Positions 1 through 30,495 of a stretch of DNA of 32,000 nt are shown here, in pieces. Position 1 is the first letter of the stretch, and each line of letters begins with the position of its first letter. The DNA comes from Propionibacteriaceae bacterium (GTDB lineage: Bacteria > Actinomycetota > Actinomycetes > Propionibacteriales > Propionibacteriaceae). Location: contig JAIRQE010000006.1 in NCBI GenBank assembly GCA_031256725.1, positions 60,001 through 92,000 of the forward strand, read 5' to 3'. The notes below the pieces were generated by a model. It was not told the DNA's origin and searched no databases. It worked only from the letters and a program-made list of their open reading frames with translations. The position numbers were made by a program, and so were the translations under genes.

Positions 1-75
1 ATCAGTACGGTATCCGTCACGCTCATGGTCAGAAGTCTATCGAAGTACACCTTCTTCGATCCGAAGGATCGGTTT

Positions 76-104
76 TTGACCGTGTTCAAAAAAAATAGTA
101 GGCT
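76..104 (+). promoter_or_regulatory. Candidate promoter of the first lic operon: -35 TTGACC (76-81), 17-nt spacer containing an A8 run (88-95), -10 TAGGCT (99-104)
   Basis: Read directly from the sequence. TAGGCT is the same -10-like hexamer found in front of dapD, dapE and leuB in this window. The -35 is overlapped by the inverted repeat TTTTTGA-CCGTGT-TCAAAAA (73-92). Confidence 0.35.
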
Positions 105-159
105 TTCGAAAATTGAACATTTTGTGAGGGTTAGTCCTCCGAGTACTAGTGAAGAAGAT

Positions 160-1950
160 ATGACTACGAATCTAACTGAGGCCGAGTTCATTGTCCTGAG
201 CCATGTGGCAACTCAGGATTCCGCGGATTCCTCATCCGTTTTTGTGTCACCACAGATTCCTCATCAAAGCGTCGATTCCATTGTCGAAGCACTTCAATCT
301 AGGGGGTATCTCAATGGTTTTGCAGTGACTCCGGTAGGAGTTGCTGTTCTGGAGCCATACAAAGTTAGAAACGCAGTAGTCATGGCTGCAGGAATGTCGA
401 CACGCTTCGCACCGATCTCCTATGAGAAACCAAAAGGATTATTGACCGTCGGTGGTGAAGTTCTTATCGAGCGAACAATCCGCCAACTTCAAGAGGTCGG
501 GATCACTGAGATTACCGTCGTTCTTGGGTACATGATGGAACAATTCCTCTATCTTGAGGACATGTTTGGGGTCAAGATTCGGATTAATCCTGAATACTCA
601 AGCCGAAACACAAACTCTACACTGAAGCTCGTTGAAGACCTTCTTGACAACACCTATATCTGTTATGCAGACAACTATTATGCGAGGAATATCTTCGAAC
701 CCTATGCATACCATGCGTACTATTCAAGTGCCTACCATGAGGGGCCGACTCAAGAGTGGGCACTAACTGTTGATGAAAGAGACCGGATCACTCAGGTCAC
801 TCCTGGTCTAGGTGATTCCTGGGTCATGTGGGGACCAGTGTACTTTGATCGTCAATTCTCTCGGGACTTTGTGCCAATTCTTAACCGTGTTTACGATGAC
901 CCAGAAACTCCACCAAAACTCTGGGAGGCTATCTATGCAGACCATGTTACCGAAGTGGATATGCGAATCCGACGCTATGAAGCTGGGGTGATCTTTGAGT
1001 TTGATTCCTTGGAGGAATTAAAAGCCTTTGATGAAAACTTCATGGTTAATGTTGATTCTTCTATTCTTGATAACATATGCACTACCCTCAATGTTGCCCG
1101 ATCCGACCTTGGAGAGTTTTCTCCCATGACAGATGGACTCTCAAATCTTTCGTTTTCCTTCACCGCGCAGGGTAAGAAATATGTCTACCGTCATCCAGGG
1201 GCATTCACGGTAGGAATTAACGATCGAGTGGCTGAGGCCCAAGCTGAAAAGGTCGCTCAAGATCTAGGCTTAGATAAGAGCTATATATACCTAAATCCTG
1301 AGAAAGGGTGGAAGATCTCTCACTTCATTGATGTGAGTGAACCCTTCGACTATCACAATCCTATACATGTGGCCCGCAGTTTAGATTCAATAAGGCGGCT
1401 TCATCATTCTGGACGAAACATCGAAGCCTCCTTTGACCTTTACGACGAGGGGCTTAAAATCACTGATCGGCTCATGTCCATTGGTGTTGGTGGTGCGACT
1501 CCACGATTCGATTTTCCGGATTTCTACCTACTTAAGGATCGTGCGGCTCGATTGAAGGAGCTTACTGATTCTGACCAAGTTGGAAAAGTCTTGTGCCACA
1601 ATGATTTTTACGAGCCCAATATTCTCATCACTGATAAGGATATTTATCTTATCGACTGGGAATTTTCGGGAATGAATGACTACGCCAGCGATTTGGGTAC
1701 TCTTATCTGTTGCTCGGATTACACCTATGAAGAGGCGCTGGACGTTTTAGCAGTCTACTTCGGTCGAACCCCTACTGATGCCGAGATTAAGCATTGTGTG
1801 GCTCATATTTCTTTGTCCGGTTACTACTGGTGGATCTGGGCACTCAATAAGGATGTCTGCGGAGAACCGGTAGGCGAGTGGACTCACTTATGGTATCGAT
1901 TTGCTAAAGAATATGGGCGAAAAGCTATAGAACTTTACGAAAGAGGATAG
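160..1950 (+). CDS. Tri-domain enzyme, paralog 1 (divergent): degenerate winged-helix N-domain + LicC-like nucleotidyltransferase + LicA-like choline/ethanolamine-type kinase
   Basis: ORF track gives 25..1950. NTP-transferase loop VVMAAGMSTRFAPISYEKPKGLL. Kinase motifs LCHNDFYEPNILI and LIDWEFSGMNDYASDLG. I prefer the start at ATG160 (MTTNLTEAEF...). Positions 60-125 are AT-rich and promoter-like, and the resulting 596 aa matches the 592-aa paralog at 3196..4974. Confidence 0.8.
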   Translation: MTTNLTEAEFIVLSHVATQDSADSSSVFVSPQIPHQSVDSIVEALQSRGYLNGFAVTPVGVAVLEPYKVRNAVVMAAGMSTRFAPISYEKPKGLLTVGGEVLIERTIRQLQEVGITEITVVLGYMMEQFLYLEDMFGVKIRINPEYSSRNTNSTLKLVEDLLDNTYICYADNYYARNIFEPYAYHAYYSSAYHEGPTQEWALTVDERDRITQVTPGLGDSWVMWGPVYFDRQFSRDFVPILNRVYDDPETPPKLWEAIYADHVTEVDMRIRRYEAGVIFEFDSLEELKAFDENFMVNVDSSILDNICTTLNVARSDLGEFSPMTDGLSNLSFSFTAQGKKYVYRHPGAFTVGINDRVAEAQAEKVAQDLGLDKSYIYLNPEKGWKISHFIDVSEPFDYHNPIHVARSLDSIRRLHHSGRNIEASFDLYDEGLKITDRLMSIGVGGATPRFDFPDFYLLKDRAARLKELTDSDQVGKVLCHNDFYEPNILITDKDIYLIDWEFSGMNDYASDLGTLICCSDYTYEEALDVLAVYFGRTPTDAEIKHCVAHISLSGYYWWIWALNKDVCGEPVGEWTHLWYRFAKEYGRKAIELYERG

Positions 1951-1952
1951 TC

Positions 1953-3188
1953 ATGGAAACCTTCGGGACAGTTGTTGTCTACATCATCATGGCCTGTGCC
2001 GTGACTGGAATGATCGTATCCATCGTGAAACCCAAGGCACAATTAGGCAAGGAGTTCCTTGCTGGTATTGATTCAATCGGACCGATCTTCCTGCCAGTGG
2101 CAGGCATCATGGCGGCAGCTCCTTATCTCACTACATTTGTTTCTTATGTCTTCGGCCCTGTCTTCGCTGCTCTTCAAGCTGATCCAGCGATGGCTGCGGG
2201 ATCACTCATTGCGGTCGACATGGGTGGATACCAACTGGCTGAGGCTCTCGCTGAAACGAGGGAATCCTGGATGATGGCAACCATGGCTGCTTATACCCTC
2301 GGTGGAGCTATTGTTTTCACAATTCCAGTAGGTCTGCGCATGATCCAGCGTCGTGACCACAAGTTTTTTGCTCTAGGAACGATGTGTGGAATTTTGGCAG
2401 TACCTGTGTCTGTCTTGATTTTCTCCATGATCTTGGTAGTCACAAATCCGGTGATTCGAGATGCCATCAACACCTCGGGGCCGGCAACCTATGTCCTATC
2501 TCTGGCTTGGACTACAGTGGGTCGCAACCTCATTCCATTGCTTGTTTTATGTGTACTTCTGGCTCTTGGTTTGATGTTTATCACTGACGCTATGATCAAA
2601 GGGTTTATCGTTTTTGGACGTAGCCTTGAAGCTGCCCTCAAGATAGTCTTCGTACTGGTTGTTGTGGACTACTTCACTGGCCTTCCCTCCCGTCTCATGG
2701 GTGCGCTCTTCCAGTTTGAGCCTATCATTGCTGACGAAGCAGATATATTCCGGGCTCTTGAAGTAGCAGGTGCGGTTGGTATCATGCTTTGCGGTGCTTT
2801 TCCAATGGTTCATCTCATCAAAACCTACCTTGCGAAACCCCTTACGGTAATCGGGAAGTTCTTTCACCTGAGTCCGGAGGCCACTGCTGGAATCCTGGCA
2901 GCTTCAGCCAATGGTATTGCTCTGTTCGCGATGTTCAAGCATCTTAAAGGGAGAGATAAGGTTATCACTGTCGCCTTTGTTATCTGCTCTGGCTATCTTT
3001 TTGGTGATCACCTTTCATTTACTGCAAACTTCCAGCCTTCGATGATTGCTCCTGTCATGATTGCTAAGGTGACTGGTGGGGTCCTCGGAATAGTCTTTGC
3101 TTTCCTTTTAGCTGTTAAGAAAGCAGACCAACTAGAGGCGACACAAATGGAGTTGGATCAAGTAGTTGAGAAAGTTGTGACAAACTAG
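1953..3188 (+). CDS. eutH: EutH-family permease (ethanolamine-transporter family)
   Basis: 411 aa and strongly hydrophobic. Blocks match enterobacterial EutH as I recall it: ADPAMAAGSLIAVDMGGYQLAEALA, IVFTIPVGL..RRDHKFFALG, FRALEVAGAVGIMLCGAFPMV, ASANGIALFAMFKHLKGRDKVITVAF..GDHLSFTA. The ATG lies 2 nt after the upstream stop and is preceded by AGAGGA. Confidence 0.8.
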   Translation: METFGTVVVYIIMACAVTGMIVSIVKPKAQLGKEFLAGIDSIGPIFLPVAGIMAAAPYLTTFVSYVFGPVFAALQADPAMAAGSLIAVDMGGYQLAEALAETRESWMMATMAAYTLGGAIVFTIPVGLRMIQRRDHKFFALGTMCGILAVPVSVLIFSMILVVTNPVIRDAINTSGPATYVLSLAWTTVGRNLIPLLVLCVLLALGLMFITDAMIKGFIVFGRSLEAALKIVFVLVVVDYFTGLPSRLMGALFQFEPIIADEADIFRALEVAGAVGIMLCGAFPMVHLIKTYLAKPLTVIGKFFHLSPEATAGILAASANGIALFAMFKHLKGRDKVITVAFVICSGYLFGDHLSFTANFQPSMIAPVMIAKVTGGVLGIVFAFLLAVKKADQLEATQMELDQVVEKVVTN

Positions 3189-3195
3189 GGCTGCA

Positions 3196-4974
3196 ATGAG
3201 ATCAGAACATTACGTCGCCCTATGTAGGCAGTTGTGCGCTAATCCGACCCTGACTCAGCGAGATCTTGCTTCTCGACTAGGAGTCTCTCTTGGGCTTATT
3301 AACCTCACGCTTAAAGAGTCCATCGTTCAAGGGTATCTTCGAAAAGAGGGAGCTAAAACCCTGCTCACCGATGAAGGGCAGAGTTACCTTGACCAATTCA
3401 AAGTAGACAATGCAATCATTCTCGCTGCTGGTTTCGGATCTAGATTCGTACCTTTCACATATGAGACACCCAAAGGGTTGTTGAAGGTCAAGGGTGTACC
3501 CATGGTGGAGCGCCAGATTGAACAACTCATTGCTGCTGGTATCAAAGAGATCATCATTGTTGTGGGCTATCGAAAAGAAGCTTTCGACTATCTCATTGAT
3601 AAGTATGGTGTCACGCTGGTGTATAACCCTGAATATGCAGAAAAAAATAATTTCGTCAGTATGTATTATGCGCTCGATTATCTGAAAAGCACCTATGTGC
3701 TCATGTCGGATAACTGGATTGAAGAGAGCATCTTCAACGCATGGGAGTCACGGTGTTGGTTTTCCTGTCTGTACTTTGAGGGAAAGACTGCAGAATGGAT
3801 TGCCCATAGTGGTTCTCGGGATAAGATCACGAAAATTGAAATAGGTGGAGAGGATGCCTGGGCAATCTTAGGCCCTGCGTATTTTACGCGAGATTTTTCA
3901 GAGACTTTCGCCGAACTTATTCGGGAGCATTATCATAGTCCAGGAACTGACAATGACTATTGGGAGCATATTCTTAAAGACAATCTGGGGTCGCTTCCTC
4001 CGATGTACATGAATAAGCAATCTAGAACCAATGTCTATGAGTTCGAGAATCTGGAGGAGTTGAGGGAATTCGATGAGTCTTATCGGCTGGATTCCGATAA
4101 TGTCATCATCCGGGAGATTTCGCAGGCCCTTAATGTTTCTCCAGACATGATCTGCCGCATCACCCCACTTAAGGTAGGAGCTAGCAATCTCTCATTCACT
4201 TTCTATGTGGATTCACAAGGGTATGTATTTCGTACCCCAGGCTTAGGGACTGAGAAGCTCATCAATCACGCCCAGGAGAAAGCAGCCTATGATGTGCTGA
4301 TTGATGTAGGGATTACTGATGAGATTGTGGCCTTCAATTCACAGCGGGGCACGAAGATCACCAAGTTCTATGAGGGGGTACATGTTGTTGATCCCTCGGA
4401 TGTTGGTCAACTGACAGAGGCTGTACGCCTTATTAAAACCCTACATACAAGCGGCCTTTCCACTGGGTACGCCTGCGATATTGAAAAAATGATTTCTTGT
4501 TACCGTGACCTGGCTGAAGAAATTAATGCTATTCGATTTGTGGACTTTGATGAAGTGACTTTATCTATAGACAAATTGCTTAATCTCAAGCGAAAAATTG
4601 CTGTTGAACCAGTACTGTGCCATGGTGATTTCACTAATACTAATGTTATCCTTTTTCCAGATGGCTCAGGGAAACTCATCGACTGGGAATACTCCGGAAT
4701 GGCCGACCCTATCATGGACATCTCAATGTTTGCTATCGATTCAATTATGGATCGCCCTCAAATTGACCAGTTTATGAGGATGTATATTTCCGAACCCACC
4801 CGTGAAGAATGGTGTCGATTGTATCTTTATGTCGCACTCGGGGGCTTTCTGTGGTCTATCTGGGCAGAATACAAACAGGCCAGTGGACAAGAGTTTGGTG
4901 AGTATCCTCTCAAGATGTATCGCTATGCGAAAGACTACTATTCAATCCTTGTCCACGAAGGCTACTTGGCTTAG
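3196..4974 (+). CDS. Tri-domain enzyme, paralog 2 (canonical): MarR-like winged helix + LicC-like CTP:phosphocholine-type cytidylyltransferase + LicA-like kinase
   Basis: N-terminal HTH: PTLTQRDLASRLGVSLGLINLTLKESIVQGYL. Transferase: AIILAAGFGSRFVPFTYETPKGLL and VGYRKEAFDYLIDKYGVTLVYNPEYAEKNNFVSMY, close to pneumococcal LicC as I recall it. Kinase: LCHGDFTNTNVIL and LIDWEYSGMADPIMDIS. It starts 7 nt after the eutH stop. Confidence 0.85.
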   Translation: MRSEHYVALCRQLCANPTLTQRDLASRLGVSLGLINLTLKESIVQGYLRKEGAKTLLTDEGQSYLDQFKVDNAIILAAGFGSRFVPFTYETPKGLLKVKGVPMVERQIEQLIAAGIKEIIIVVGYRKEAFDYLIDKYGVTLVYNPEYAEKNNFVSMYYALDYLKSTYVLMSDNWIEESIFNAWESRCWFSCLYFEGKTAEWIAHSGSRDKITKIEIGGEDAWAILGPAYFTRDFSETFAELIREHYHSPGTDNDYWEHILKDNLGSLPPMYMNKQSRTNVYEFENLEELREFDESYRLDSDNVIIREISQALNVSPDMICRITPLKVGASNLSFTFYVDSQGYVFRTPGLGTEKLINHAQEKAAYDVLIDVGITDEIVAFNSQRGTKITKFYEGVHVVDPSDVGQLTEAVRLIKTLHTSGLSTGYACDIEKMISCYRDLAEEINAIRFVDFDEVTLSIDKLLNLKRKIAVEPVLCHGDFTNTNVILFPDGSGKLIDWEYSGMADPIMDISMFAIDSIMDRPQIDQFMRMYISEPTREEWCRLYLYVALGGFLWSIWAEYKQASGQEFGEYPLKMYRYAKDYYSILVHEGYLA

Positions 4975-6119
4975 TCCACCAGTTCCCTGGCAATGCTTAT
5001 TAAGGCTTGAGCGGTCTGATCCCATGTGAAGGTGCTTTCTACCCGCGCACGGGTCTTGTTGGCCGCACTGTGCCGCCATCGGTCATTGGTAAGGGCTTCG
5101 ATAAGGAGTTCAGCGATAGTTTGTTCATTGTGTGCGGGCAAGATGCCGCCATATTCTTTGGAGAGGATTAATTCTGGGGTTCCACCGACGGGTGTTGTAA
5201 CCATAAAAGTACCAAGGGCTCCCGCTTCAAGTACTACTGTTGAGAAGCCCTCAGAATGTGAAGGTAGGCAAAAGATATCTGCTTGACTGAGGAGAGATAG
5301 AGCTCGTTCGTGTGTGAGTCCGCCAACATAGATCACCCCAGCCTGATTGTGAGCTTCAAGCTGGCTGTGCAGGGGGCCTTCACCAGCGATGATTAGAACG
5401 CACTCAGGAACGGTGAGTTGAGTAACTCTCATTGCTTCCAGAAGCTCAGGAATGCCCTTTTCGGGTAGGAGACGTCCAACAAAGGCAATGAGTTTCATCG
5501 AGGCCGGGATTGAGAAGTCATCACGGACGTTCCATGCACCCTGTGCTGCTTGCTTCACGGTTTGATTGATGTTGATGGCGTTATAGAGAATCTCTACATC
5601 ATTGATTGCAAAGGTTTTCAGCCACGAAGCACTCTGCTGAGATACAGCAGCAAATTTCGAGGCATATCTCTTCATCCACCATGCAGCAATGTGTTCATAG
5701 ATTCGAATGATTGTATTGAGTGCATAATTACCCATGGTTAAATAACTGGATCCATGTTCAAGAACAATGCAGGGAATTCCTCGCTTCGCGCATGCACGAG
5801 CTGCCCATAGTGACAGTGCCCAGAATCGTGTATTAATCAATGCAAGGTCGAAGTTGCCTACCGCAATATCCTTCATCAGTGATCGGAAATTTCGGTTAAA
5901 ACGCGGTAGAGGATAACGCCCAGCGAGCATAGGAATCGAAGGTACTCGAACGATTTTTACTGCGTCTTCATTCTCACTTATCGGAGTATCAGGAAGTTGG
6001 CTAGCAATGATAGTCACTTCATGGCCCGCATGGGTAAGTGCTTGGGCCAGATAGTGAGTGTACCTCTCTACTCCACCTATTGTGGGGAGGTACTGTGCGG
6101 AGAAGAGAGCGAATTTCAT
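4971..6119 (-). CDS. GT4-family glycosyltransferase
   Basis: ORF track gives 4971..6143. Typical GT4 N-terminus MKFALFSAQYLPTIGGVERY and E-x7-E block EGFSTVVLEAGALG. I prefer ATG6119, which has purine-rich GAGAAAG upstream. The longest ORF starts at 6143. Confidence 0.8.
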   Translation of the reverse strand: MKFALFSAQYLPTIGGVERYTHYLAQALTHAGHEVTIIASQLPDTPISENEDAVKIVRVPSIPMLAGRYPLPRFNRNFRSLMKDIAVGNFDLALINTRFWALSLWAARACAKRGIPCIVLEHGSSYLTMGNYALNTIIRIYEHIAAWWMKRYASKFAAVSQQSASWLKTFAINDVEILYNAININQTVKQAAQGAWNVRDDFSIPASMKLIAFVGRLLPEKGIPELLEAMRVTQLTVPECVLIIAGEGPLHSQLEAHNQAGVIYVGGLTHERALSLLSQADIFCLPSHSEGFSTVVLEAGALGTFMVTTPVGGTPELILSKEYGGILPAHNEQTIAELLIEALTNDRWRHSAANKTRARVESTFTWDQTAQALISIARELVD

Positions 6120-6215
6120 GTGATGGCTTTCTCTTTCTATCATTCCTCAGGGTTACCTATTGGCTCATGGTACTAGACTACCTAGGTCAGGGAAGCACAA
6201 GATAGGAGTGAGTGG

Positions 6216-7043
6216 GTGGCTGACCAAAGTGATGTGCGTGACATTCAACTGCGACTATTGTCCATTTTGAAACTGATCCAAGCCGTGTGCGAGCGTCATG
6301 AAATTAGATTCTTTCTTGCTTATGGAACTTTACTGGGTGCGGTACGTCATAAGGGTTTCATTCCTTGGGATGATGACGTTGATATTTTCATGACCAGACA
6401 AGACTATGAAAAACTCTTTTCAGTGCGAGATGAACTTGGGCCCGACTTCATTATTCAAGAATGGAGGACCACGCCTGAGTATTGGTGTTCTTATCCGAAA
6501 GTACGACAACTTCGGCCTAAGCCTTATATAGAATCACTGATTGCTGATGTAACCGAGAAGAACGGCTTATTTATCGATATCTTTGTGCTAGATGGCTTGC
6601 CTCGGGAACGTTCTCTAGCCCAGTGGCTAGTGGCTGAGGTTCTCAACTTTGCTCGGATTCTTCTTTTGCTTAAAGATATTGGCCCACGAGATCCACGCCC
6701 ACTCATTAAGGCAATCAGTCCACTAGCCAGACTCATTCCGCGATCCTTGATTGCCAAAGTGATGGAGTGGGGATGGTCGCGGTGGAAAGATGGGCCTGCA
6801 ACCTGGCTTGTTCCATATGCGGATCCCGATCTTCGTAATAGTCCGATTCGAGCAAGTGCAATTTTATCAAATGGGGGGGGGTGCTCCATGGTTGAATTTG
6901 AGGGCATTCCCATGCCATGTCCTCGTGATTCAGAGGGATTTCTTCACACCTATTACGGTGATTACATGCAGCTTCCACCTGAAGATCAAAGAGCCTGTCA
7001 TGATATGCGTAGGAACCCCGACTACCATCCGGATGAAGGTTAA
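6216..7043 (+). CDS. licD: LicD-family phospho-alcohol (phosphocholine-type) transferase
   Basis: LLGAVRHKGFIPWDDDVDIFM (LicD acidic motif) and C-terminal YYGDYMQLPPEDQR. GTG6216 has AGGAG (6204-6208) 7 nt upstream. Confidence 0.85.
   Translation: MADQSDVRDIQLRLLSILKLIQAVCERHEIRFFLAYGTLLGAVRHKGFIPWDDDVDIFMTRQDYEKLFSVRDELGPDFIIQEWRTTPEYWCSYPKVRQLRPKPYIESLIADVTEKNGLFIDIFVLDGLPRERSLAQWLVAEVLNFARILLLLKDIGPRDPRPLIKAISPLARLIPRSLIAKVMEWGWSRWKDGPATWLVPYADPDLRNSPIRASAILSNGGGCSMVEFEGIPMPCPRDSEGFLHTYYGDYMQLPPEDQRACHDMRRNPDYHPDEG
6873..6881 (+). repeat. G9 homopolymer tract inside licD (encodes GGG, residues 220-222)
   Basis: Counted directly: g6873 to g6881. It is the longest G/C homopolymer I found in the window. 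Confidence 0.95.
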
Positions 7044-7046
7044 TAC

Positions 7047-8354
7047 GTGCTTCATCGGATTCTTACCAACTCGAAGAACGTCAATCGAAGTGCCTACATC
7101 TGGAACATGATTGCGAGCATCCTGGCAGCAGCACAGTCGATGGTGATGATCTTTGGGGCTTCCAGTCTTCTTGGCGTGGCTGCTACAGCTGTGATTTCGC
7201 TAGCATCTGCGTACACCTATACTCTGTCAACTATTGGTGCTTTTGGAATGAGAAGATTCCATGCTTCAGATGCGGACCGCCAGTATTCCCAACGTGAATA
7301 CCTATGGTCGAGATTCATAACAGTGAATGCCATGTTCGTGATTGCCGCGGTCTTCATTGTGATGAAATCTTGGGATCCGCAGTCTACGCCGATGAAACTT
7401 GGAGTTATTGCAATACTGGTTCTGATTAGGGCCGTTGACTGCATTGACGATGTCATTACTGGGCATTTTCAGCAGACGGGTCGCCTAGACATTGGATCAC
7501 GGATCACGGCATTGCGTTTAGTCGTGTGTACTCTCGGCTTTCTCGTTTCCTTGATTATCACTCGTGATCTGATGCTTAGTCTGATCATCAGTTTCGTACT
7601 CTCACTTCTTGTTCTGGCGGTACTTGCTCGATCCGCTTTGCAGGGCTATGACCCTGATCGTGTACGTACCGTTGACAGGGTAAAAGTGTGGAAACTCCTG
7701 TGGGCTTGCATGCCATTGTTTATCTGGGGTTTTCTTGGGATGTATATCACTAATGCACCCAAGTTTGGGATTGAATCCGCCATGGAAGGAATAGCTCAGA
7801 AGCAGGCCCAAGCTTGCTACGGGATAATTTCAATGCCTGCTTTTGTGATCTCTTTGTTGAGTGGTCTGGTTTTTCATCCCATTATCCATTCCCTTTCTCG
7901 ACAGTGGTTGGATCGGGATTTGGTTGGTTTTGGGCGAACAGTAACCCGAATATCTCTCGTTATCTTAGGGATCACTGCTGCTTGTGTTACTGGAGGAGCA
8001 CTTCTAGGCTTGCCTATCCTTTCGCTAGCATCTCCTTTAGTCGATCTTGGGGGATTAGAACTCGAACTCGCAATACTCCTCTTAGGTGGAGGATTTACCG
8101 CTTTTTCTGCATTCTTCTCAACAGTGCTGACGATTATGCGTCGACAACTGGCTGCTGCCGTTGCTTTGGGTGTAGCTGCGGCTTTCGGACTGACTTCTCA
8201 CTGGTGGGCTCAGTGGCAAGGACTTTTGGGGGTTTGTTTATTGTTTTTAACAATGTACGCCCTCAACACCCTCATTGCAGGGGTGCTGATATGGTGGACT
8301 TGGCGGTCTCGACGATTTAAGGGAACACCCCATTCTGAGGCCAGTACGACGTAG
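7047..8354 (+). CDS. Multi-pass membrane protein, probably a Wzx/MOP-type glycan flippase (polymerase not excluded)
   Basis: 435 aa with about 12 hydrophobic segments. GTG start lies 3 nt after the licD stop. The N-terminal region NRSAYIWNMIASIL...GMRRF resembles polysaccharide-transporter N-termini. No catalytic motif recognised. Confidence 0.45.
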   Translation: MLHRILTNSKNVNRSAYIWNMIASILAAAQSMVMIFGASSLLGVAATAVISLASAYTYTLSTIGAFGMRRFHASDADRQYSQREYLWSRFITVNAMFVIAAVFIVMKSWDPQSTPMKLGVIAILVLIRAVDCIDDVITGHFQQTGRLDIGSRITALRLVVCTLGFLVSLIITRDLMLSLIISFVLSLLVLAVLARSALQGYDPDRVRTVDRVKVWKLLWACMPLFIWGFLGMYITNAPKFGIESAMEGIAQKQAQACYGIISMPAFVISLLSGLVFHPIIHSLSRQWLDRDLVGFGRTVTRISLVILGITAACVTGGALLGLPILSLASPLVDLGGLELELAILLLGGGFTAFSAFFSTVLTIMRRQLAAAVALGVAAAFGLTSHWWAQWQGLLGVCLLFLTMYALNTLIAGVLIWWTWRSRRFKGTPHSEASTT

Positions 8355-8368
8355 ACACAAGGAGGATC

Positions 8369-9418
8369 ATGGCTCGCGTGATGCATGTTCTTTTATCTGG
8401 AGGATACTCTGGGGCAGAGAATGTGGCTGCGACCATTGCTCTGCTTGAAAAAGAGAATGAACATATCTATGTTTCTCCTCCAGGTGTCATTTCCTCTGTC
8501 TTGGAGCGGTTAGGTATTCGACACGTTGAGGTACCTAGGGTCACACCTTCAGCGATCTCGCGGGTGATCCGAGAACACTGCCCGAATGTCGTCCATGCCC
8601 ACGATATAGGAGCGGCAACCATAGTTGCCCTCGATCACCTTGTTCATCGACACTACCGATTGTTGACTCATATTCACTGCAACCATCCCAATATGCGTCG
8701 TGTAAGTGTCCGATCTTTGCTACTGCTTTTTGTGAACACTCAATCTGACGCACTTTTCGTAGTCTCACGTCCTGTGATCGACGACTATCTATTTAAGAAG
8801 TGGATTAAGACTCCGACGGTGCTTCCCAATGTCGTTAATGAGGAACTCATTATGGAGTCCAGCAGAAAGAGCCTGGCCAAAAATATTGATGTTGTATTTC
8901 TGGCTAGGCTCACTCACCCAAAGAACCCCCTCGGATTCATTGATGTCATAGCTGGAGTACGAAAGTCGATTCCGGGTCTGAAAGTCGTCGTCATTGGAGA
9001 CGGAGAACTGGCAGAACAGACGAAGGCCAAAACGGTCGGCGAAGGCCTTGAAGATGTCGTCGAATTCTTGGGTTTCCAGGCCAATCCTTATCCTTATGTT
9101 AAGCAGGCAAGAATCTGTGTCCTCACATCAGTATGGGAAGGCTATCCCATGTCGGCTCTTGAAGCCATGCTCTTAGGAGTGCCCATAGTATGTACCGATG
9201 TTGGGGGTTTGCCACAGATGGTCAACGACTCAGTGGGTAGGGTTTGTACGACTTTAGCTCAGATCGAAGAAGAAGTGATACATCTATTATCGGATCCTAA
9301 GTATCTTGAAGAAAAGACAGCCAAGACCACAGACCATGCTCGTCAAATCAACAATGTGAAGGGTTTCAAACAGATCCTTTCGAGCACCTATCACCGCCTA
9401 GCTGAGATGAGTCGGTAA
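8369..9418 (+). CDS. GT4-like glycosyltransferase
   Basis: E-x7-E block EGYPMSALEAMLLGVPIVCTDVGGLPQMV. Strong SD AAGGAGG upstream of ATG8369. Confidence 0.75.
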   Translation: MARVMHVLLSGGYSGAENVAATIALLEKENEHIYVSPPGVISSVLERLGIRHVEVPRVTPSAISRVIREHCPNVVHAHDIGAATIVALDHLVHRHYRLLTHIHCNHPNMRRVSVRSLLLLFVNTQSDALFVVSRPVIDDYLFKKWIKTPTVLPNVVNEELIMESSRKSLAKNIDVVFLARLTHPKNPLGFIDVIAGVRKSIPGLKVVVIGDGELAEQTKAKTVGEGLEDVVEFLGFQANPYPYVKQARICVLTSVWEGYPMSALEAMLLGVPIVCTDVGGLPQMVNDSVGRVCTTLAQIEEEVIHLLSDPKYLEEKTAKTTDHARQINNVKGFKQILSSTYHRLAEMSR

Positions 9419-9426
9419 ACACTGGA

Positions 9427-9456
9427 TTGACGGTGAATCGAAAGATTCACTATGAT
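9427..9456 (+). promoter_or_regulatory. Candidate tRNA-Gly promoter: -35 TTGACG, 18-nt spacer, -10 TATGAT
   Basis: Read directly. The -10 ends 26 nt before the tRNA 5' end. The spacer is itself a perfect hairpin GTGAATC-GAAA-GATTCAC (9433-9450), which could also stop the upstream operon. Confidence 0.4.
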
Positions 9457-9482
9457 GGCCAGGTTGTCTTGAGGACAATCAT

Positions 9483-9556
9483 GCGAATGTAGCTCAATGG
9501 TAGAGCCCCAGCCTTCCAAGCTGGTCATGCGGGTTCGATTCCCGTCATTCGCTCCA
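9483..9556 (+). tRNA. tRNA-Gly (anticodon UCC), CCA encoded
   Basis: Hand-folded cloverleaf. Acceptor GCGAATG/CATTCGC, anticodon stem CCAGC/GCTGG with loop CTTCCAA, T-arm GCGGG-TTCGATT-CCCGT, discriminator T, then CCA. Confidence 0.9.
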
Positions 9557-9561
9557 AAGAA

Positions 9562-10449
9562 CTAGAAACGTACGATCACCGTTGTTGATGACTGGGAGGA
9601 ATCGGTACGTCCAACCCAACCAGTCAGGGTCTTATCAGAGGCCTTCCATTCGTAGCTGCCAATTGTCACTTCTTTCACTCCGGTTTCAGTGGCCCAACTT
9701 TGTGCAAAAGCTGCCACGGACCATGCGATCTCTTCATTGGAGGCGGTGAGGGTGACGTAGGGGTCTTCGGATGATGTTCCTGGAGTCACCACAGCGTGTA
9801 CCGTTGCACCGTATGCTCGTGTCATTGAGGAAACTAAGAGTTCGGGGTTCGCGGGAGCTGGGTTATACACAATACAGGACCAGGACGCAGGGGTCTGGCC
9901 TGATAAGGATGAGGCTAGCAGCCGAGCGCGATCCACATGCTTGTCATAAGCATCAGGGAAGCCACTGCGTTGAACGGCTTGAGCCACGTCACCAATATCG
10001 GAGTTCTGCCAGTCGCTGACTTTCACCATCTCATCGAAGAATTTCCCTGTTGAATAGTAGGGATCCATGATCTGCTCCTCCGTACCCCAGCCTTGGGAGG
10101 GGCGCTGTTGGAAGATGCCGAGTGAATCGCGATCACCATAATCAAGGTTGCGGATATCGGACTCTTGGAAGGCGGTGGTGATTGCAATCGATACTGCCCG
10201 GGGTACTAGTCCGCGTTGGGCAGCGATACCTGCCATCAGGGAGGCGTACCTCGACTGATCTATGGTGATGCTTGCTGAGCCTGAATCGAGTTGTGCCCGG
10301 CACAGGGTGGCAGGTGGTGGGGGAGGATCTTCTACCCATAGGGACGAGGCCCAACGGTAGGCGCCCCAGAACCCTGCGATGAGTGCCAAGACGACGAGTC
10401 CTATGCCGAGGCCGATCATGATGGTTTTGAAGGTTGATGAATCTTTCAT
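9562..10449 (-). CDS. Membrane-anchored conserved actinobacterial protein with a lytic-transglycosylase-like motif
   Basis: N-terminal TM segment TIMIGLGIGLVVLALIAGFW, then a proline run. FQESDIRNLDYGDRDSLGIFQQRP parallels the SLT pattern E-S...G-L-M-Q. It starts 2 nt after the dapD stop, so it is probably co-transcribed. Confidence 0.5.
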   Translation of the reverse strand: MKDSSTFKTIMIGLGIGLVVLALIAGFWGAYRWASSLWVEDPPPPPATLCRAQLDSGSASITIDQSRYASLMAGIAAQRGLVPRAVSIAITTAFQESDIRNLDYGDRDSLGIFQQRPSQGWGTEEQIMDPYYSTGKFFDEMVKVSDWQNSDIGDVAQAVQRSGFPDAYDKHVDRARLLASSLSGQTPASWSCIVYNPAPANPELLVSSMTRAYGATVHAVVTPGTSSEDPYVTLTASNEEIAWSVAAFAQSWATETGVKEVTIGSYEWKASDKTLTGWVGRTDSSQSSTTVIVRF

Positions 10450-10451
10450 GT

Positions 10452-11369
10452 TCAGTTCCGATGTAGTTCAGTGTTCAGTTCAACTTTTCGAGAACCCCGA
10501 GGGAGGGCTTTAACCTGGCCGGTCACGGAGTCGCGGATATAGAGCCAATTGGCTTGTCCTGACAACTGCGATCCCTTCGAGATCGAACCATCAGGGAGGG
10601 TGACCTTTGTGCCGGCAGTGAGATAGAGTCCAGCTTCGATGATGCAGTCGTCTCCTAGGCTAATACCGAGTCCAGATTGGGCGCCTAATAAGCATCGCTG
10701 CCCGATGGTGACCATCTCTTTTCCGCCACCAGAGAGGGTACCCATGATGGAGGCACCACCACCGATATCTGAGCCATCGCCGACCACGACCCCTGCCGAG
10801 ATACGGCCTTCGACCATGGAGGTTCCCAGGGTCCCTGCATTAAAGTTAACAAAACCTTCATGCATGACGGTTGTTCCTTCGGCCAGGTGTGCTCCAAGGC
10901 GCACCCGGTCTGCATCCCCGATACGAACCCCTGAAGGGACAACGTAATCAACCATGCGAGGGAACTTGTCCACACTGTAGACAGTGAGGGTACCCAGGTT
11001 ACGCAACCGTGATCGTACCTCTTCAAAACCTTCTACGGCGCAGGGGCCAGCCGAGGTCCACACAACATTGGGGAGTATCCCAAAGATCCCCTCAAGGTTG
11101 ATCGTCCTGGGTTCGCTCAGGCGATGGGAGAGCAGGTGAAGACGAAGGTAGGCATCTGGTATGGATGCTGGAGGTTCGTCAAGGTCTATGGAGATGAAGG
11201 TGACTTCTTGGCGTACCTTACGTGAAGCCATGGTTGGATTCGGGGTGGGCTCATCGAGGTCGGCCTTTGTCCCTTCCCCCAACTGGAGTTGGGGGAACCA
11301 GCAGTCAAGAATGCCTGACTGGTCATGGATGGTCGCGATCCCCATGCCTGACGCTTTCCGAGAATTCAT
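10452..11369 (-). CDS. dapD: Tetrahydrodipicolinate N-succinyltransferase (actinobacterial type)
   Basis: [12 protein letters not shown] and hexapeptide-repeat C-terminal half. N-terminus [26 protein letters not shown] aligns with mycobacterial DapD as I recall it. I prefer ATG11369. The longest ORF starts at 11393. Confidence 0.85.
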
Positions 11370-12576: not shown

Positions 12577-13305
12577 ATGGTTAAGGATTATCTCATTCGT
12601 GAACAAAGCGGTGTCATCCGTCGCGGCCCCCAAGCCTCAGTCGTCACAGCCGATCAGAAACTCTTGGAGCATGGTGATAATGGCTGGAAGAGTGGTGATC
12701 CTTGGCGGGTAATGAGGATTCAGGCGGAATTCGTTGAAGGTTTCGAGAATCTTGCAGGGCTTGGTCCAGCAATCTCAGTTTTTGGTTCTGCTCGAACACC
12801 CCAGGATCATCCCGAATACCAGACCTCCTATGAGGTTGGACGTCGTTTGGCTCAGGAGGACTACGCTGTTGTGACTGGGGGTGGTCCTGGCATTATGGAA
12901 GCGGCCAATAGGGGAGCCTATGAAGCTGGGGGAGTCTCTGTTGGGCTTGGGATTGAGTTACCCTTTGAACAGGCCCTCAACCAGTACCTCACCCTCGGGA
13001 TCATGTTCCGGTACTTCTTCGCACGCAAAACCATGTTCTTGAAGTACTCGCAAGGCTTTGTGGTGATGCCTGGTGGATTCGGTACACTCGATGAACTCTT
13101 TGAGGCGCTTGTCCTTGAACAGACACATAAGGTAACCCGTTTCCCCATCGTTCTCATGGGGAAGCAGTACTGGTCGGGGCTCATTGATTGGGTACGTACC
13201 TCCATGTTGTCCCATCACTTCATTTCCGCAGAGGATGTTAATGAAATTCCTATCACTGATGATGTGGATGAAGTCATCGCAATCATGAAGACTCAGACAG
13301 GCTAG
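12577..13305 (+). CDS. LOG-family (TIGR00730-type) nucleotide phosphoribohydrolase
   Basis: GGGPGIMEAANRGA and PGGFGTLDELFE motifs. Confidence 0.85.
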   Translation: MVKDYLIREQSGVIRRGPQASVVTADQKLLEHGDNGWKSGDPWRVMRIQAEFVEGFENLAGLGPAISVFGSARTPQDHPEYQTSYEVGRRLAQEDYAVVTGGGPGIMEAANRGAYEAGGVSVGLGIELPFEQALNQYLTLGIMFRYFFARKTMFLKYSQGFVVMPGGFGTLDELFEALVLEQTHKVTRFPIVLMGKQYWSGLIDWVRTSMLSHHFISAEDVNEIPITDDVDEVIAIMKTQTG

Positions 13306-13307
13306 TT

Positions 13308-13655
13308 ATGGAATGGTTTATTGCACTTATCGCTGTAGGGGTTCTTGGTTTTGCTGCAATGGCAGCTTCAGGTGGGCTTGGGCAATTCGGACCGGTACAC
13401 ATTGATCGAGTGTCCTTGGACCTGCCGAGTACCCCGCTGACCTCTCAAGGCATCTCGAAGCTCAGCTTCACAGTGGTACCTCGGGGGTACGCAATGGAGC
13501 AGGTCGATCTTGTCCTTGCACGGCTCGAAGAGCAGCTCAAATCCGAACCTGACGCGTCTCGTTCTTCCATCGCCCAAGAATCTGGAATAATAGAACCTGA
13601 CAAGTTGAACGACCAAAGGAATCACGATGGCAGCGATGAAACCTCGCACGGGTGA
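13308..13655 (+). CDS. Small membrane-anchored DivIVA-domain protein
   Basis: N-terminal TM segment WFIALIAVGVLGFAAMAA, then the DivIVA-domain signature F-x4-RGY-x3-VD (FTVVPRGYAMEQVDLVLARLEEQL). Confidence 0.7.
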   Translation: MEWFIALIAVGVLGFAAMAASGGLGQFGPVHIDRVSLDLPSTPLTSQGISKLSFTVVPRGYAMEQVDLVLARLEEQLKSEPDASRSSIAQESGIIEPDKLNDQRNHDGSDETSHG

Positions 13656-16446: not shown

Positions 16447-16758
16447 ATGCCAATCCCACAGCTTTCTGCTGGCGAACTGGCTGCGGCACGAGCAAAGGCG
16501 ATCGTGGTCCGACGAGCTCGTACCGCCCTCAAAGACAAGGTCCGTTCAGGGGCTCTGAGCCCCACACAAGCACTCACTGAGGCTATTGCTGATCCTCAGT
16601 TAAAACTCATTAAGGTTTTCGATTTCTTGAAGGCTGTTCCTCGCATCGGCGAGAAGAAGGCCGAAGCTCTCATGGTGAAGTACTCTATCGCGTCCAGTCG
16701 TAGACTGGGGGGGCTGGGAATCCATCAGCTTGAGGGACTAAAGAAAGAGCTTGGGTGA
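16447..16758 (+). CDS. mihF: Actinobacterial integration host factor
   Basis: MPIPQLSAGELAAARAKAIVVRRARTALKDKVRSG. SD AAGGAG lies upstream. Confidence 0.85.
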   Translation: MPIPQLSAGELAAARAKAIVVRRARTALKDKVRSGALSPTQALTEAIADPQLKLIKVFDFLKAVPRIGEKKAEALMVKYSIASSRRLGGLGIHQLEGLKKELG

Positions 16759-29385: not shown

Positions 29386-30495
29386 ATGATGAAAGTCATC
29401 CGCAATTCTGAAGAAGACTCCAATCTCGATAGACTGGGGACCATTATGCGCGGAGAATACAAAGTACCTGGTGGGAAGCTTGTTGCGGTTGAAATTGAGG
29501 CAACGGATGGGGTGATTACTCAGGCCCATGTGGCGGGGGATTTCTTTCTGGAACCTGAGGAAGCTCTGGGTCGAATCAATGCCTCACTTATGGGCCTTAC
29601 CGTGGATGCTCGTGTTTCACAGATCGCTCAAGCAGTTGAGAAGGCATTGGATCCCAACGACTCCCTTATCGGTTTCTCTCCTCGTGACATTGGTTTTGCG
29701 TTACGCAGAGCAGTGGGTGCCTCAACGCGATGGGATGATCATGTCTTTGAGCTAATCAAGGATGGGGCGCGCTCTCCAGTGATGCATATGGCTTTGGATC
29801 AGGTTTATGCAGAGGCCATGTCCTGTGGGACGCGGGGCCCAACCCTGAGGATTTGGGAATGGGGAGCACCTGCTGTCGTGATTGGCTCCTTCCAGTCACT
29901 TAAGAATGAGGTTGATCCTGAGGGTGCAGCCCGTCATGGGATCACAGTCGTACGTCGGGTCTCCGGTGGTGGAGCCATGTTCATTGAGCCTGGAAACACC
30001 ATCACCTATTCCCTTGTTGTTCCAGGATCACTGGTGGATGGCATGAGTTTCGAGGAATCCTACGAGTACCTGGATTCCTGGGTGATCCTTGCCCTCAAAC
30101 AACTAGGGATCGAAGCCCGTTACGTACCCATCAATGACATCACCTCTCCTGCTGGAAAGATCGCTGGAGCTGCTCAAAAGAGATTGAAGGATGGTACGGT
30201 CCTCCATCATGTCACCATGGCTTATGACATTGACGCTACAAAGATGTTGGAAGTCTTGAGGATTGGCCGAGAGAAGATGTCCGACAAGGGTACCAAATCC
30301 GCTCAGAAGAGGGTTGACCCTTTGCGGTCCCAAACCCAGATGACCCGTGAACAGATCGTGGAGTCTTTTGTGGAGTCTTTCGCGAGCCAGTACACACTAA
30401 AACTCAGCCAGGTTTCACCTGACGAGGAAGAGGCTGCCACCACCCTTGTGGAAACGAAGTTTGGTACGCAGCAGTGGCTGAATCTTGTTCCCTAA
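29386..30495 (+). CDS. lplA: Lipoate-protein ligase, circularly permuted (accessory domain N-terminal to the catalytic domain)
   Basis: N-terminal EYKVPGGKLVAVEIEATDGVITQAHVAGDFFLEPEE resembles the LplA C-terminal accessory domain. The catalytic part follows: VVRRVSGGGAMFIEPGN and GKIAGAAQKRL. The alternative start ATG29446 (MRGEYKV) has GGGGA upstream. Confidence 0.7.
   Translation: MMKVIRNSEEDSNLDRLGTIMRGEYKVPGGKLVAVEIEATDGVITQAHVAGDFFLEPEEALGRINASLMGLTVDARVSQIAQAVEKALDPNDSLIGFSPRDIGFALRRAVGASTRWDDHVFELIKDGARSPVMHMALDQVYAEAMSCGTRGPTLRIWEWGAPAVVIGSFQSLKNEVDPEGAARHGITVVRRVSGGGAMFIEPGNTITYSLVVPGSLVDGMSFEESYEYLDSWVILALKQLGIEARYVPINDITSPAGKIAGAAQKRLKDGTVLHHVTMAYDIDATKMLEVLRIGREKMSDKGTKSAQKRVDPLRSQTQMTREQIVESFVESFASQYTLKLSQVSPDEEEAATTLVETKFGTQQWLNLVP

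Follow-up and report, generated by a model that had tools for sequence, protein, structure and literature searches.

A nine-guanine tract in a licD gene of an uncultured Propionibacteriaceae bacterium is a frameshift-prone site within chance expectation

Results

In the 32,000-nucleotide stretch of Propionibacteriaceae DNA analyzed here (the window), a run of nine guanines lies in frame within a licD gene, where slippage by one base in either direction truncates the reading frame ahead of the conserved C-terminal block. With a probability of roughly 55%, we read the run as an incidental homopolymer that codes for three glycines and serves as the frameshift hot spot of the locus, from which LicD-null variants would arise reversibly and at a low rate.

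A G9 Tract in the licD Reading Frame

By homopolymer count, the nine consecutive G at 6873-6881 of the plus strand form the longest homopolymer of the 32-kb window, followed by A8 at 88-95 and G7 at 16707-16713. An earlier note on this DNA had named the tract the longest G/C run and the G7 the next longest, and the run count confirmed both. Its first G is in codon position 1 of ORF 6216-7043, and the nine bases form the codons GGG GGG GGG, giving Gly220-222 in the protein context ..ILSNGGGCSMVEF.. at a point 80% along the ORF and away from its 5' end. The G7 lies near the 3' end of a 103-aa ORF (16447-16758; PF22525, H2TH_5) and just precedes the start of an overlapping guanylate-kinase gene (16755). 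The features of the tract and its slip products are as follows.

6216-7043, plus strand: LicD-family phospho-alcohol transferase, 275 aa, intact with G9 (PF04991, motifs, AlphaFold2 model, fold match)
6873-6881, plus strand: G9 homopolymer, GGG GGG GGG, Gly220-222 of LicD (base-run count, translation)
6893-6895, plus strand: TGA stop after a +1 slip; 226 aa with G10, 225 aa with G7 (simulated tract lengths)
7108-7110, plus strand: stop after a -1 slip; 297 aa with G8, 298 aa with G11 (simulated tract lengths)

When tract lengths were simulated, the slip products that had been translated by hand proved exact, with G8 ending at 7110 and G10 at the TGA of 6893-6895. The simulation also reproduced the loss of the conserved C-terminal block YYGDYMQLPPEDQR, which is missing from both the G8 and the G10 product. 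The G8/G11 product runs past the GTG of the next gene at 7047 and overlaps the start of that gene. We considered a programmed frameshift or fusion product and rejected it, as the G8 tail, which stops 64 nt inside the next gene, has neither a similarity nor a function. As in contingency loci, a slippable mononucleotide G/C tract (about 7-8 units or more) lies inside an ORF, and a change of one unit toggles the frame. All structural prerequisites for a slipped-strand switch are present, with G9 as the "ON" frame.

The Tract Lies in a Loop Upstream of Conserved LicD Residues

LicD-family enzymes transfer a CDP-activated phospho-alcohol to a cell-surface glycan. That the tract gene encodes a decoration transferase of this type, as previously proposed, is borne out by the PF04991 profile match (E = 2e-33; 116.7 bits against a curated cutoff of 22.6), the conserved motifs, and an FKRP-like predicted fold. 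The exact protein is on record as MDR0488168.1, annotated "LicD family protein [Propionibacteriaceae bacterium]." Both the N-terminal motif WDDDVD (WDDDxD) and the C-terminal YGDYMQLPP (YGDYMxLP..H block) are kept. W51, D52-54, D56, and P254 are invariant in alignments of 16 and of 66 sequences, and the smaller set also shows no variation at Y247-Y250, L253, and H262, whose conservation in the larger one is at least 90%. The alignments place the invariant or near-invariant F228, E229, P236, L243, Y247-G-D-Y250, L253, P254, and H262 on the 3' side of the tract. Because the invariant C-terminal residues all lie downstream of the tract, we strongly infer that both slip products would lose function.

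An AlphaFold2 model computed on 66 homologues (pLDDT 92.9) puts Gly220-222 in a loop that leads from helix 213-216 to strand 224-228, the strand opening a hairpin 224-228/231-235. Foldseek matched the model to the FKRP catalytic domain (6L7U/6KAL/6KAM) with a probability of 1.00 and E = 3e-5, and an HMM match to 6KAJ likewise points to a nucleotidyltransferase-type fold like that of the FKRP catalytic domain. To our knowledge, FKRP (fukutin-related protein) is the only LicD-type structure solved.

The Tract Is Not Exceptional in Length

An independent-and-identically-distributed (iid) estimate from the window base counts gives ~0.25 G/C runs of at least nine per 32 kb. We also used a stricter null, in which synonymous codons were permuted among the 28 CDS of the window and every protein sequence was kept. 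Under this permutation, a mean of 0.31 such runs was expected in the 32 kb covered by the test, and the probability of at least one was 0.27; over a stretch of this size, the result is compatible with selection as well. The G9 run is not statistically exceptional, as a run of this kind would arise by chance in about a quarter of cases. GGG makes up 27% of the glycine codons in the window, which holds 10 Gly-Gly-Gly tripeptides. Shorter G/C runs were mildly depleted, with 8 runs of at least six observed in the CDS against 13.4 expected in the permutation; against this depleted background, the G9 is an outlier, although not significantly so, and the position of the tract above that background counts against an incidental origin.

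Extending the count to 44.4 kb of the source genome (the upstream piece L057, the window, and the downstream piece L061), we found one G9, one G7, and one A8, and no other G/C run of at least eight. The G9 has no companion among long G/C tracts in its island. Neither overrepresentation of the tract relative to composition and codon usage nor its conservation in relatives was found.

Related Loci Do Not Carry the Tract

In a search of ~15 billion proteins, the closest LicD homologues were 54-56% identical. The related loci L054, L055, and L056 (55-59% GC) share a module made up of the fusion gene, a GT4 gene, LicD, and a Wzx-like gene; L054 and L055 appear to be one locus from two collections, and the nonredundant sequence amounts to ~40 kb. 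At the tract position, homologues read YGQP or YGEP, encoded by TACGGGGCG or TATGGGGCG, with only a 4-G stretch there, and across the ~40 kb, licD included, there was no G/C run of at least eight. Given the YGQP/YGEP of the homologues, the Gly-Gly-Gly and the tract are lineage-specific and occupy a variable loop. The earlier note had called for a comparison of tract length among related strains; in the 54-56% identical homologues, the tract is absent from the equivalent position.

LicD peptide patterns searched in 185,579 GTDB species-representative genomes, a set from which the source metagenome-assembled genome (MAG) is absent, gave a best near-full-length identity of 34%; matches at this level were mostly from gut Firmicutes and Bacteroidota, and short N-terminal segments reached 57%. 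Some genes farther downstream, the related loci L054 and L056 contain a second, divergent LicD paralogue (L054:18916-19794 and L056:17923-18801; 292 aa, with ~30% identity to the LicD of the window), and the window island has a single LicD.

The Lineage Has Been Sampled Once

Over 17 kb, the Logan assembly of SRR14710887 shows 100% identity to the window, G9 included. A literature search for this run accession gave no record that would place its habitat. As this assembly and the MAG contig probably both derive from run SRR14710887, their agreement is not independent. A flank-anchored pattern with a variable gap (ATTTTATCAAAT N5-14 TGCTCCATGGTT) returned 0 matches in the JGI metagenome contigs. 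Among the ~15 billion proteins, nothing fell between 56% and 100% identity to LicD and no truncated LicD variant was present; the sole other member of the exact-protein cluster of LicD is a V/M start-codon variant. Exact look-ups of LicD and five neighboring or flanking genes returned only SRR14710887 contigs and, for some of them, the 182.6-kb MAG contig; the look-up of ORF 29386-30495 gave no record, probably because the called start differs. The lineage is thus represented by a single MAG contig and the Logan assembly of a single run, each with G9, and this single sampling accounts for the lack of a tract-length variant in the searchable collections.

The Gene Belongs to a Low-GC Glycan-Decoration Island

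The tract had been placed in a low-GC island, in agreement with the GC profile: bases 1-9500 have 45-49% GC vs. 52-56% elsewhere in the window. Apart from licD, the island contains the following features.

1-9500, no strand: low-GC (45-49%) glycan-decoration island beside core genes dapD, dapE, and others (52-56% GC) (GC profile, Pfam)
160-1950, plus strand: fusion 1, nucleotidyltransferase and choline/ethanolamine kinase (LicC/LicA-like domains) (Pfam; ATG 160 probable start)
1953-3188, plus strand: EutH-type permease (PF04346, E = 6e-112; NCBIfam EutH, 559 bits)
3196-4974, plus strand: fusion 2, nucleotidyltransferase and kinase with an N-terminal winged helix-turn-helix (wHTH) (Pfam; 50% identity to the fusion gene of the relatives)
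4971-6143, minus strand: GT4 glycosyltransferase, divergent from licD (Pfam, comparison with related loci)
7047-8354, plus strand: polytopic membrane protein, 435 aa, ~12 hydrophobic segments (hydropathy, transitive homology)
8369-9418, plus strand: GT4 glycosyltransferase (Pfam)

By Pfam, the Lic-1 set is represented by LicA-type kinase and LicC-type NTP-transferase domains in the two fusion proteins, with LicD alongside. We found no LicB-type choline permease in the island, the sole permease there being of the EutH type (PF04346), with an NCBIfam EutH score of 559 bits that falls just under the equivalog cutoff of 575. As the permease is EutH-like and not LicB, the transferred group could as easily be phosphoethanolamine as phosphocholine, and the alcohol predicted for LicD is probably one of the two. 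The EutH-type permease together with two kinase/nucleotidyltransferase fusions hints at phosphoethanolamine, or at two phospho-amine decorations.

The ORF of fusion 1 is open from position 25, and ATG 160 was chosen by the domain offset relative to its paralogue. Fusion 1 is 32% identical to the single fusion gene of the relatives, with no closer counterpart found in the related loci, and the N-terminal winged-HTH segment of fusion 2 resembles MarR/EPS regulators. The A8 at 88-95 lies upstream of the probable ATG 160, between TTGACC (76-81) and TAGGCT (99-104); these are spaced 17 nt apart, and the A8 could be a promoter-spacer tract. The consensus scan called no promoter at 76-104, and its promoter and terminator calls across the window were at background level only. 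Tandem Repeats Finder reported no other notable repeat in the lic genes.

The membrane-protein gene starts at 7047, 3 nt past the licD stop. Its 435-aa product has no Pfam match and is 37% identical to genes of the relatives that bear a weak match to PF01943 (Polysacc_synt, MOP flippase), by which transitive homology only it may be Wzx/MOP-flippase-like. The earlier note had described a flippase start at this site; the position stands, and the flippase identity carries that same qualification.

Poly-G Clusters in Other LicD-Bearing Loci

A much stronger contingency signature than that of the window is found in a LicD-bearing glycan locus of 34% GC from a Bacteroidales MAG (RGIG4929, roe deer rumen; JAFUYA010000039.1, L013:2500-10900). 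Within 8 kb there are six G8-G9 tracts, all on the same strand, against an iid expectation of ~0.01, and OFF states are observed: one G8 tract exactly splits a GNAT gene (ORFs 2339-2620/2578-2985), and another does the same to an Acyl_transf_3 gene (8958-9518/9515-9988). Many tracts, a very low chance expectation, and OFF states together mark a contingency island; none of these features is seen in the window. The existence of such clear poly-G clusters in other LicD-bearing glycan loci counts against an incidental origin of the window tract. The LicD gene of that locus (10001-10843) has a G9 of its own at codons 268-270 of 280. We compared the two positions and rejected homology between them, as the tract of the Bacteroidales gene follows the conserved block.

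A Mailhella MAG (NZ_CANRLT010000001.1) has an in-frame G8 (10005-10012) in the N-terminal extension of a 359-aa LicD-like ORF (9743-10822), and a G9 (13416-13424) near the 3' end of a 267-aa ORF (12672-13475).

Discussion

Repeat-controlled lic genes have been described or proposed in Gram-negative bacteria. In Haemophilus influenzae lic1, CAAT repeats at the 5' end of licA give ON/OFF phospho-amine decoration (as cited in PMC539331). The window resembles this system in the predicted LicD-dependent phospho-amine decoration of a surface glycan and in the repeat inside a lic gene; it differs in having a mononucleotide repeat 80% into the transferase gene licD, where H. influenzae has a tetranucleotide repeat in the 5' end of its kinase gene. 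Switching is experimentally proven in H. influenzae, a Gram-negative pathogen, and is putative in the present host, an uncultured actinobacterium. For Campylobacter upsaliensis RM3195 licABCD, control of phosphorylcholine by a poly-G in licA (bp 132-146) was proposed from sequence (PMC539331). There too, a homopolymeric G tract is found within a gene of a lic locus, but that tract, at the 5' end of licA, is longer and its genome has many other variable runs of G, in contrast to the single G9 in licD. The Neisseria pilin phosphorylcholine transferase gene pptA has a poly-G whose length correlates with phase-variable phosphocholine display (PMC10434233). It shares with the window the location of the tract in the coding region of the transferase itself, although its target is the pilin protein and not a glycan.

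Precedents closer to the host concern other genes. Cutibacterium acnes, the best-studied member of the host's family, has 54 variable homopolymeric tracts, 96% of them G/C and ~28% intragenic, some truncating; their lengths follow clades, and the authors interpret this as slow accumulation and not as active switching (PMC4746626). None of its variable tracts is reported in a lic-type gene. The actinobacterial NucS repair system leaves 1-2 bp indels unrepaired, permitting homopolymer-based variation (PMC11551767). Mycobacterial tracts (glpK 7C/7G, espA, espK, and others) provide reversible actinobacterial homopolymer frameshifts of the kind posited here; these cases are backed by thousands of genomes and by experiments, but no surface-glycan lic gene is among them. 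A 7G tract of Mycobacterium smegmatis gained +1 frameshifts at 3.1e-8 per generation (PMC10334774), and this rate of ~3e-8 is far below that of classical contingency loci. The earlier note knew of no such case in an actinobacterial lic-type locus. That statement needs narrowing, as homopolymer frameshift variation is established in actinobacteria and poly-G control of a lic locus has already been proposed (PMC539331); the tract would join a known class, without a new mechanism.

The best-surviving alternative is a true contingency locus, in which selection would maintain the tract and LicD would pass reversibly between ON (G9) and OFF (G8/G10) at a frequency that sustains decorated and undecorated cells. 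Such a locus would help cells escape phage, antibodies, or lectins that recognize the phospho-amine epitope, and in its OFF frames, translation of the neighboring membrane-protein gene could be disturbed as well. We regard it as possible but doubtful. The length of the G9 is within the range of functional poly-G switches, one-base slips in both directions truncate the product, the gene class and island context fit, and the nonconserved loop could accommodate a repeat. NucS would not remove indels of 1-2 bp (PMC11551767), and the C. upsaliensis licA proposal, Neisseria pptA, the CAAT repeats of H. influenzae licA, and the Bacteroidales poly-G cluster with two genes split exactly at tracts all provide precedents. 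Against these stand the chance-level length (P = 0.27), the single tract without companions in the island, and its absence from the equivalent position of 54-56% identical homologues. The 15 billion proteins and the JGI contigs contained no length variant or truncated protein, and both assemblies give the tract as G9. The actinobacterial rate measured in M. smegmatis is slow (PMC10334774), tract lengths in C. acnes track clades (PMC4746626), and the tract lies 80% into the ORF and not near its 5' end.

The proposal of the earlier note, a phase-variation switch for the decoration transferase, therefore divides in two. The sequence prerequisites of a switch are present in the window; the switching step is unsupported, as the tract is at chance level, solitary, absent from homologues, and found at one length, and the comparable tracts of C. 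acnes change slowly and are bound to clades. In its full form, with the G9 as a selected slipped-strand ON/OFF switch on LicD itself and thereby the first actinobacterial case of a lic-type surface decoration under repeat control, the proposal seems to us unlikely. If it were true, the switch would operate in a host whose repair leaves slippage loops in place, and it would generate decorated and undecorated subpopulations in the community.

A sequencing or assembly error, with, e.g., G8 or G10 as the true length or with several lengths in the population merged into G9, is very improbable. Homopolymers are error-prone, and two assemblies that probably share run SRR14710887 do not provide independent agreement. 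However, two different assemblers gave the identical sequence, and the G9 frame continues into the invariant F228, E229, P236, Y247-Y250, L253, P254, and H262, with a normal stop following 3 nt ahead of the next gene. Less credible still is a function of the run in RNA or DNA apart from frameshifting, e.g., as a hairpin, a terminator-like element, or a site of transcriptional slippage: the consensus scan listed ATGGGGGGGGGTGCTCCAT (6871-6889) as a weak terminator-like stem, but its 9 terminator-like sites are background (8.1 expected in shuffles), and the stem needs G-T pairs, is situated in coding sequence, and has a poor T-run after it. Slippage by RNA polymerase is documented for the most part on A/T runs.

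We thus favor the incidental Gly3-coding homopolymer as the most probable reading. The glycan island would have been horizontally acquired by the Propionibacteriaceae host, and the run would have arisen incidentally as common GGG glycine codons and not as a selected switch; the commonness of GGG among the glycine codons of the source genome makes such an origin the most likely one. Once present, the G9 would be the most slip-prone site of the locus. Slippage to G8 or G10 would strip the last ~55 residues, with the β-hairpin, a helix, and the invariant C-terminal residues, and leave cells LicD-null until the opposite slip restores LicD. By analogy with actinobacterial tracts, the slip rate may be low, roughly 1e-8 to 1e-6 per generation, and the tract would act as a mutational hot spot or slow contingency site rather than as a fast phase-variation switch; the G9 is also a plausible low-frequency contingency site. 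The ON frame, together with a gene class known for contingency tracts (surface-glycan decoration, lic-type), counts against a purely incidental reading.

At present, the tract merits an annotation flag ("frameshift-prone tract in licD") and not the name of a discovery, its mechanism being well known. If it does switch, phase-variable phospho-amine decoration would be known beyond Gram-negative mucosal pathogens, in an uncultured actinobacterium that is commensal or environmental, and the window would offer a concrete locus at which to test the effect of NucS-type repair on contingency behavior outside mycobacteria.
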